Below, one piece after another: positions 15,001-18,000 of a DNA stretch of 28,367 bases. Source of the stretch: a virus (taxonomy: Duplodnaviria; Heunggongvirae; Uroviricota; Caudoviricetes); IMG/VR virus record IMGVR_UViG_651053023_000009; one strand, written 5' to 3'. Positions within the stretch are counted from its first letter, which is position 1, and every line of letters starts with the position of its first letter. The position numbers were made by a program.

Positions 15001-18000
15001 GTTAAACGCGCTGGTGGTTGCGAATACCGGTCTTTCAGCTTGCTGGCTTTTTCGACAAGAGTTATTGGTATGTCATGTTAACCAGAAAAGGAAAAAGACA
15101 TGCTAAAACAGCAGGATATGACCGAAACCGCCAGAGTGGTGTTTAATGAATTAAGCGTCACCGAACCGGCGACCGTCGGGGAAATTGCGCAGAATACTTA
15201 CCTTTCACGCGAACGCTGCCAGTTAATACTGACTCAGCTTGTTATGGCGGGTCTGGCAGATTATCAGTTCGGTTGTTACAGACGCCTTCCGCAGTGAAGG
15301 CTTTTTAATTTGTGGTAATGGGCGGCTAGTGGGTGTTAGCGGCACCTGCCAGCCATCTGCTCATGCGTTGGGGTCACAAGCAAACCTCAGGCCCATCTGC
15401 TTTGCGCAAAAGCGGTATGAGCCTATCAGAGAAGTGCTTATTGATCTATGGCTGATACTGTAAAAATATCCAGTTGCGAGTTAATCAACGCTGATTGCCT
15501 GGAATTTATCCAGACCTTACCGGAAAACTCTGTCGATCTGATAGTCACAGACCCGCCATACTTTAAAGTGAAGCCCGAGGGCTGGGATAACCAGTGGATG
15601 ATTACCTGAAATGGCTGGACCAGTGTCTGGCACAATTCTGGCGTGTATTAAAGCCCACCGGAAGTCTTTACCTGTTCTGTGGTCATCGCCTGGCGTCTGA
15701 TATCGAAATCATGATGCGTAAACGCTTTAATGTGCTGAACCATATTATCTGGGCGAAGCCGTCCGGACGCTGGAATGGCTGCAACAAGGAAAGCCTGCGG
15801 GCGTATTTCCCGGCAACAGAGCGCATTCTGTTTGCCGAACATTATCAGGGGCCATATCAGCCCAAACATGACGGCTATGCGGCAAAGGGGCGCGAGCTTA
15901 AACAGCACGTCATGGCCCCGCTGATTTCTTACTTTCGTGATGCGCGTGATTCACTTGGGGTAACATCGAAACAGATAGCGGAAGCGACCGGAAAGAAAAA
16001 CATGGCGTCACACTGGTTTGGTACAAGTCAGTGGCAGTTGCCGAACGAGGGTGATTACAACAAATTGCAGGCGTTGTTTGCGCGTGCTGCAGCAGAAAAA
16101 CATCAGCGCGGGGAACTGGAAAAGCCACACCACCAGCTGGTCAGCACATACAGTGAACTGAACCGGCAATATGCCAGCCTGCTGGAGGAATACAAATCAC
16201 TGCGGCGTTATTTTTCTGTATCGGCTGCTGTTCCGTATACGGATGTCTGGATGTATAAGCCTGTACAGTATTACCTCGGCAAACATCCCTGTGAAAAACC
16301 GGCGGAGATGTTGCGTCAGATAATTACCACCAGCAGTCGTCCGGGAGATCTGGTTGCAGATTTTTTCATGGGGTCGGGTTCGACGGTCAAAGCAGCGATG
16401 GCGCTGGGACGTCGTGCAATTGGCGTTGAGCTGGAGACCGGGCGTTTTGAGCAGACGGTGAGGGAAGTTCAGGATTTAGTCAGTCAGAACGGATGATATT
16501 GCAGAATTAGTTACGTACCGTTATTATCCTGCGCCCGGCCCTTTAGCTAAGTGGTGAGAGCGAGCGACTCATAATCGCCAGGTCGCTGGTTCAAATCCAG
16601 CAAGGGCCACCATAACATACCGCCATTAGCTCATCAGGAAGAGCAGACGACACGATAACAGGGTTGTTGGTGCGGGGTTCGAGTCCTGGATGGCGGTCCA
16701 TTATCTGCATCATGCGTTGTTAGCTCAGTCGGACAGAGCAATTGCCTTCTAAGCAATCGGTCACTGGTTCGAATCCAGTACAACGCGCCACACTTATTTT
16801 CCCTGGCTCGCTTCTGCGGGCTTTTTTGTATCTGCGCCGGGTCTGGTACTGATTACCTTAACTAAAAGGAATATATGTATATGAAGTGTATATTGTTAAA
16901 GTGGATACTGTGTCTGTTACTGGGTTTTTCTTCGGTATCCTATTCCCAGGAGTTTACGATAGACTTTTCGACTCAACAAAGTTATGTATCTTCGTTAAAT
17001 AGTATACGGACAGCGATATCGACCCCTCTTGAACATATATCTCAGGGAGCTACATCGGTATCCGTTATTAATCATACACCACCAGGAAGTTATATTTCCG
17101 TAGGTATACGAGGGCTTGATGTTTATCAGGAGCGTTTTGACCATCTTCGTCTGATTATTGAACGAAATAATTTATATGTGGCTGGATTTGTTAATACGAC
17201 AACAAATACTTTCTACAGATTTTCAGATTTTGCACATATATCATTGCCCGGTGTGACAACTATTTCCATGACAACGGACAGCAGTTATACCACTCTGCAA
17301 CGTGTCGCAGCGCTGGAACGTTCCGGAATGCAAATCAGTCGTCACTCACTGGTTTCATCATATCTGGCGTTAATGGAGTTCAGTGGTAATACAATGACCA
17401 GAGATGCATCAAGAGCAGTTCTGCGTTTTGTCACTGTCACAGCAGAAGCCTTACGGTTCAGGCAAATACAGAGAGAATTTCGTCTGGCACTGTCTGAAAC
17501 TGCTCCTGTTTATACGATGACGCCGGAAGACGTGGACCTCACTCTGAACTGGGGGAGAATCAGCAATGTGCTTCCGGAGTATCGGGGAGAGGCTGGTGTC
17601 AGAGTGGGGAGAATATCCTTTAATAATATATCAGCGATACTTGGTACTGTGGCCGTTATACTGAATTGCCATCATCAGGGCGCGCGTTCTGTTCGCGCCG
17701 TGAATGAAGAGAGTCAACCAGAATGTCAGATAACTGGCGACAGGCCCGTTATAAAAATAAACAATACATTATGGGAAAGTAATACAGCAGCAGCGTTTCT
17801 GAACAGAAAGTCACAGTCTTTATATACAACTGGTGAATGAAAGGAGTTAAGAATGAAGAAGATGTTTATAGCGGTTTTATTTGCATTGGTTTCTGTTAAT
17901 GCAATGGCGGCGGATTGTGCTAAAGGTAAAATTGAGTTTTCCAAGTATAATGAGGATAATACCTTTACTGTGAAGGTGTCAGGAAGAGAATACTGGACGA

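Follow-up and report, generated by a model that had tools for sequence, protein, structure and literature searches.

The window analysed here, one strand of 28,367 nucleotides filed as the IMG/VR virus record IMGVR_UViG_651053023_000009 (Caudoviricetes), carries a prophage DNA methyltransferase gene that is written as two open reading frames (ORFs). The shorter one starts with an ATG, includes the peptide DLIVTDPPY and with it the catalytic motif IV (DPPY, 15550-15561), and ends after 53 codons at a TGA stop (15607-15609). The longer one opens with a GTG in a frame lying 2 nt ahead of the first, which equals the loss of one base, encodes 300 residues and contains motif I for S-adenosylmethionine (AdoMet) binding, FMGSG, at 16365-16379. 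The two ORFs overlap by 16 nt (15594-15609), and the locus can be laid out as follows:

15448..15609, + strand: N-terminal fragment of the methyltransferase, 53 codons and TGA, with a product identical to AEJ56239.1
15597..15598, + strand: gap junction at which the 10 bases AAGGGCGACA are missing, placed by alignments with relatives
15594..16496, + strand: C-terminal remainder of the methyltransferase, with a PF01555 match of 128 bits and a match to WP_000024324.1

The 300-aa piece aligns with the family profile PF01555 (N6_N4_Mtase, cut-off 26.7) beginning at profile position 26; an intact relative scores 151 bits over the entire profile, and the 53-aa piece alone does not match. The 53-aa piece aligns to residues 1-50 of intact proteins of 352 residues, its last three codons (MIT) being an out-of-frame read-through past the gap, and the 300-aa piece matches residues 54-352 of WP_000024324.1 with 100 % identity. 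This larger piece comprises motifs V-VIII, a helical target-recognition region and motif I. Across both pieces the order is DPPY in the N-terminal part, target recognition in the centre and FxGxG in the C-terminal part, as expected for a beta-class enzyme. Judged by these alignments, the two ORFs are halves of a single gene for a beta-class adenine methyltransferase. The first-pass annotation had described the same arrangement, with 53 DPPY-bearing codons ending at 15607 and the FxGxG part continuing in another frame from 15594; both features are present in the sequence, and its assignment to a prophage DNA methyltransferase is borne out by the profile match and the motif order.

As written, the two motifs do not lie on one continuous polypeptide, with the stop after codon 53 and the rest in another frame. 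The sole early in-frame start of the 300-aa ORF is the GTG at 15594, which has no well-spaced Shine-Dalgarno sequence; a GAGGG ends 12 nt upstream. With DPPY on one ORF and the AdoMet-binding motif on the other, which is without a well-spaced ribosome-binding site, the gene as written reads as a pseudogene and an active enzyme is not expected.

Alignment with relatives defines the nature of the lesion. A stretch of 10 bases that all 14 aligned sequences contain (cq9, phiP27, ETEC1748, PEC422, JNEC-KY178, P13-6, STEC409 and seven further contigs) is missing from the window between 15597 and 15598, with flanks that are otherwise near-identical. The gene spans 1,049 bp in the window compared to 1,059 bp in the best matches among 5,426 complete Escherichia coli genomes and in phage phiP27. 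The missing tract encodes K51, G52 and D53 together with the first base of N54, and at the protein level the conserved KGD is gone and the wrong residues MIT are gained. The intact allele reads ...CAGTGGAAGGGCGACAATGATTAC... as a 1,059-bp ORF with a product of 352 residues (…NQWKGDNDYLKW…; ...WDNQWKGDNDYLKWLDQ...), and all intact proteins have this length and the segment PEGWDNQWKGD(N/D)DYLKWLDQ. At the junction CAGTGG is directly followed by ATGATT. The missing tract is non-repetitive, and deletion by slippage between direct repeats was ruled out because the microhomology amounts to only 1 nt (A). A recurrent assembly breakpoint at this position was also considered and gave a weak hint only: partial N-terminal products end at codons 49-61 in many draft assemblies, which suggests that contigs often end in this part of the gene, a cluster that is length-selected by construction and lies in DNA of unexceptional local variability.

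A different lesion had been proposed in the first-pass annotation, namely that slippage or the miscalling of a homopolymer had removed one G from a short G run (TGGGAT to TGGAT), a change whose repair would give a 349-aa ORF with the implied reading ...CAGTGGGATGATTAC.... One added base does restore the frame, and the insertion seemed to mend the gene because a loss of 10 bases shifts the frame as a loss of one base does; by coincidence, 349 residues is also the length of the prophage methyltransferase M.EcoGII. However, the run consists of GG only (15596-15597), neither TGGGAT nor TGGGATGAT stands at this site in any of the 14 compared relatives, all of which carry TGGAAGGGCGAC(A/G)ATGA, and M.EcoGII itself reads NQWKGDDDYLKW. 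The reconstructed 349-aa protein (...NQWDDYLKW...) is absent from a collection of 15 billion proteins, and the true product is the one of 352 residues with KGDN restored. The single-G version is thus refuted by the alignments, and we give it practically no credence. A one-base repair that restores a frame can mislead, and it is the comparison with relatives that reveals the true 10-bp lesion.

The broken allele was traced to one source. In the protein collection, the 53-aa product is identical to AEJ56239.1 (UMNF18_1648, a hypothetical protein of Escherichia coli UMNF18) and occurs on one contig only, of 5,239,207 bp. UMNF18 is a porcine O147:H4 hybrid of Shiga toxin-producing (STEC) and enterotoxigenic (ETEC) E. 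coli that carries stx2e (PMC6449507). A 121-nt probe across the junction matched 629 E. coli genomes with a best identity of 92.4 %, which corresponds exactly to the 10-base gap. The gap junction was absent from the 5,426 complete E. coli genomes, scans of three collections (viral, metagenome and GTDB genome contigs) gave no instance of the exact junction, and neither the 53-aa nor the 300-aa product had a match in the contig index. There is no length polymorphism at the site, as the tract is missing from none of the 629 probe-matching genomes and present in 14 of the 14 aligned relatives. The RefSeq complete-genome set, which does not include UMNF18, holds no 100 % match to the window. The exact parental allele, P0046, which combines the N3D change of the window with KGDN, occurs unbroken on 16 other contigs, several of which were seen in multiple samples, and a homologue spanning at least 80 % of the gene is found in about 1,900 E. 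coli genomes. The gap is confined to the record of E. coli UMNF18. One candidate for an independent split, a 261-aa product starting at the equivalent of ATG 15711 in LVMY01000245.1, was rejected: the tract is intact there, and a 115-bp duplication around N at a scaffold join within the methyltransferase gene (positions 600-830 of that contig) gives rise to spurious ORFs of 95 and 261 aa.

The repaired allele P0046 is 86 % identical to M.EcoGII over the full length (301 of 349 residues), a value to be read as a lower bound, as the M.EcoGII sequence was taken from machine-read text (supplement file 5 of PMC11551740). It is 87 % identical to the methylase of phage 1720a-02, which has been named a close homologue of M.EcoGII (PMC5778455). 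M.EcoGI and M.EcoGII stem from prophages of E. coli O104:H4 C227-11 (Murray et al. 2018, PMC5778455). M.EcoGII is a prophage-encoded N6-adenine methyltransferase that acts on DNA and RNA independently of sequence and is silent in the lysogen, and its constitutive expression is harmful or toxic to cells (PMC5778455). With M.EcoGII as well as M.EcoGI the gene has in common the order of DPPY, helical target-recognition domain and FxGxG, the segment NQWKGD(D/N)DYLKW and the location on a prophage; it differs from M.EcoGII in that the window copy is interrupted by the gap and yields no full-length protein, and in that the intact orthologue has 352 instead of 349 residues, with another C-terminal tail. 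The high full-length identity and the position in the late region of a lambdoid prophage, downstream of Q, assign the gene, at the level of sequence, to the M.EcoGI/M.EcoGII clade as a late-operon N6-adenine methyltransferase of a phiP27-type Stx2e prophage.

Orthologues at the same position are L24 of phiP27, annotated as a putative DNA methylase (CAC83542.1, AJ298298), and WP_000024324.1 of porcine Stx2e prophages. Apart from the gap their genes share 96-99 % DNA identity with the window gene, but they are intact 1,059-bp ORFs, whereas the window copy of 1,049 bp is frameshifted. More distant relatives of known structure are M.RsrI (1eg2), CcrM (6pbd) and M1.MboII (1g60), with E-values of 1e-15 to 1e-21. 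They have the catalytic Rossmann core in common, but only the two terminal blocks around motif IV and motif I align; in contrast to the M.EcoGII type these enzymes are site-specific and their target-recognition regions are unrelated.

On this likeness, methylation of adenines by the intact allele would be non-specific, as inferred from the 86 % identity to M.EcoGII. By analogy with M.EcoGII, the intact gene would be silent in the lysogen and, on induction, transcribed from the Q-dependent late promoter. The enzyme would then methylate adenines across the phage DNA as it replicates, with sequence specificity slight or absent, and this cover of N6-methyladenine would shield the progeny genomes from restriction.

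The surroundings of the gene fit a late operon of this kind. The window runs from the integrase through early genes, Q, a small ORF and the methyltransferase to ileZ-like and argO tRNAs, then stx2eA/B, holins and endolysin, with the following features around the methyltransferase:

14017..14397, + strand: Q antiterminator, start of the late operon, intact with 0 amino acid differences from WP_000090267.1 (PEC422)
15100-15297: ORF of 65 aa between Q and the methyltransferase
15284..15309, + strand: terminator-like hairpin followed by a T tract, from a consensus scan only, between the 65-aa ORF and the methyltransferase
16537..16790, + strand: tRNA cluster between the methyltransferase and stx2e, from ARAGORN (16537-16612 and 16714-16790) and the annotations of relatives
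16881-17840, + strand: stx2eA, intact with 0 amino acid differences from WP_001372428.1
17853-18116, + strand: stx2eB, intact with 0 amino acid differences from WP_000738063.1

The same order of Q, methyltransferase, tRNAs, stx2e and holin is annotated in phiP27 and in porcine STEC genomes, and the annotated relatives are phiP27-type Stx2e prophages inserted beside ompW. Among 52 porcine STEC strains, 71 % have this methyltransferase on the upstream flank of stx2e (PMC12571312). Both toxin genes lie directly downstream and are transcribed in the same direction as the methyltransferase. The hairpin at 15284-15309 is presumably read through under Q antitermination; a window-private single-nucleotide polymorphism (SNP) at 15307 in its T tract is a run-boundary change (T5A2 in the window, T6A1 in relatives) that shortens T6 to T5. 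The tRNA cluster consists of a tRNA with a CAT anticodon (ileZ or tRNA-Ile in relatives), a degenerate middle tRNA and a tRNA-Arg(TCT). The middle tRNA of this ileZ-argN-argO cluster (about 16620-16700) was missed by ARAGORN, is called 'tRNA-OTHER' in RefSeq relatives and is a degenerate argN-like tRNA in Stx2e phages. Further upstream, in the prophage early region, a gene of the SIR2 family (9148-10107) that may serve in defence precedes a transposase of the IS481 family on the minus strand (10436-11509); window-private SNPs at 10508 and 11115 fall within this copy of the insertion sequence.

The methyltransferase is not the only gene in which the record departs from its relatives. The closest relatives available for comparison were the contigs carrying P0046. 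Between 11820 and 19468 (7.66 kb) four of them (L019, L020, L022 and L023) show no differences among themselves, and L021 and the complete genome P13-6 depart from these four by 1 SNP, while the window differs from all six by 2-3 SNPs and 3 indel events. Between 10 and 28 kb, one-base length changes in short A or T runs that are private to the window are located at 15091 (A5, A6 in relatives), 19228, 19921, 21307, 21481, 21595 and 27261, and the window-private SNPs in the stretch from 10 to 21 kb number six, five of them transversions. The window versions at 19228, 21307/21481 and 27261 were found in no complete E. coli genome.

Several of these changes fall into other genes. The M15-family endolysin gene (19195-19571) is frameshifted by A6 at 19228 in place of the A7 of all relatives and stops at codon 32 of 126, a change that is private among 211 matching complete genomes. 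In the start region of terS (21280-21600) the private changes are +1 at 21307 (A6 vs A5), +1 at 21481 (T4 vs T3), which frameshifts the terS remnant, and -1 at 21595. The DUF4376 gene (27187-27773) is split into ORFs of 115 and 158 aa by TT at 27261, where relatives have TTT; this change is private among 69 matching genomes, and a 158-aa fragment in a second assembly (L018) turned out to be a truncation at the contig start, with the site reading TTT and intact. Near the Q gene, a hypothetical late-region ORF at 14379-14880 is cut to 124 aa (166 aa in relatives) through A7 at 14726 where others have A6. Unlike the other indels, this A7 allele is a real polymorphism, as 34 contigs have it, P13-6 among them. 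Over about 0.9 kb (22500-23400) the window is highly divergent from L019, with near-identity on either side, and this patch could reflect recombination with a paralogous prophage or paralogous copies mixed in the assembly.

Could the split be functional? Two ORFs in place of one would be explained by a frameshift that is programmed or phase-variable, or by an enzyme in two pieces, reassembled from the 53-aa DPPY fragment and the 300-aa fragment, and the overlap at 15594-15609 permits, in principle, termination-reinitiation, with the 300-aa fragment translated by coupling from the GTG within 16 nt of overlap with the upstream stop. Phase-variable methyltransferase genes, for instance Type III mod genes with simple-sequence repeats, likewise have their frame switched off by an indel, but the present junction has no repeat tract or slippery site and occurs once, and the 629 genomes carry no length variation; as far as the alignments tell, the site is not a contingency locus. 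An architecture restricted to one record, in which KGD is lost and MIT gained and the GTG is without a well-placed Shine-Dalgarno sequence, leaves hardly any room for a functional frameshift or a reassembled enzyme, and the coupled translation of the second piece is every bit as improbable. What has to be weighed is whether the gap belongs to the strain or to its deposited sequence, the same pair of alternatives, true inactivation or indel error, that the first-pass annotation had rightly offered. We favour, with some reserve, a flaw of the deposited UMNF18 record or its assembly over a mutation of the strain, because the gap is private to one record that also bears private homopolymer changes and transversion-rich SNPs. 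The private branch is many times longer than those of the relatives, half of it consists of indels and it is rich in transversions, which looks like the errors of an early-generation assembly and not like clonal divergence. UMNF18 was reportedly sequenced by 454 pyrosequencing. Look-ups of the integrase and the exonuclease for the chromosomal flanks of UMNF18, intended to calibrate the error rate, returned only other strains.

Some observations weigh against an assembly error. Classic homopolymer miscalls do not take the form of 10 bases lost from non-repetitive sequence, and such a loss does not follow automatically from the other errors, and at 14726 the record contains a frameshifting A7 that is genuine. 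The prophage lineage was, moreover, already defective: the terS/terL region is reduced to remnants compared with PEC422, also in the nearest relative L019, and because only remnants are left the prophage, by its gene content, cannot package DNA. Porcine STEC generally lack complete Stx2e phages (PMC12571312), and real decay of late genes in such a lineage is plausible. The 10-bp deletion might accordingly be a recent, strain-private null mutation that arose in UMNF18 under relaxed selection in a particle-defective prophage, to which selection against toxic leaky expression of the methyltransferase may have contributed, given that expression of M.EcoGII is deleterious to cells (PMC5778455). We regard a real deletion as a serious possibility, though the less probable of the two: just one record shows it, against 16 other contigs with an unbroken copy of the identical parental allele, it lies amid many private, error-like differences where four other assemblies have zero mutual differences over 7.66 kb, and a homologue over at least 80 % of the gene persists in about 1,900 E. 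coli genomes, which argues against a general pressure for its loss. Most probably the gap is an error of the UMNF18 assembly; if real, it is a null allele private to the strain, in a prophage that was defective already. Were the deletion real, UMNF18 would be a natural knock-out of both an M.EcoGII-type promiscuous adenine methyltransferase and the endolysin in its Stx2e prophage, which appears less likely than not.

M.EcoGII-like prophage methyltransferases upstream of stx2 are already well described, and one disrupted copy of a known gene family in one strain record is routine and of small biological weight. The finding does call for caution with the UMNF18 record, in which private indels appear to cluster within the late region of the Stx2e prophage and to hit the genes for the methyltransferase and the endolysin as well as the terS remnant and the DUF4376 gene; defective genes of this prophage should not be concluded from this record alone. 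If the deletion is real, it would represent an unremarkable null allele in a decayed prophage, and UMNF18 could be used to ask what role the methyltransferase has in toxin expression or in the spread of the phage.
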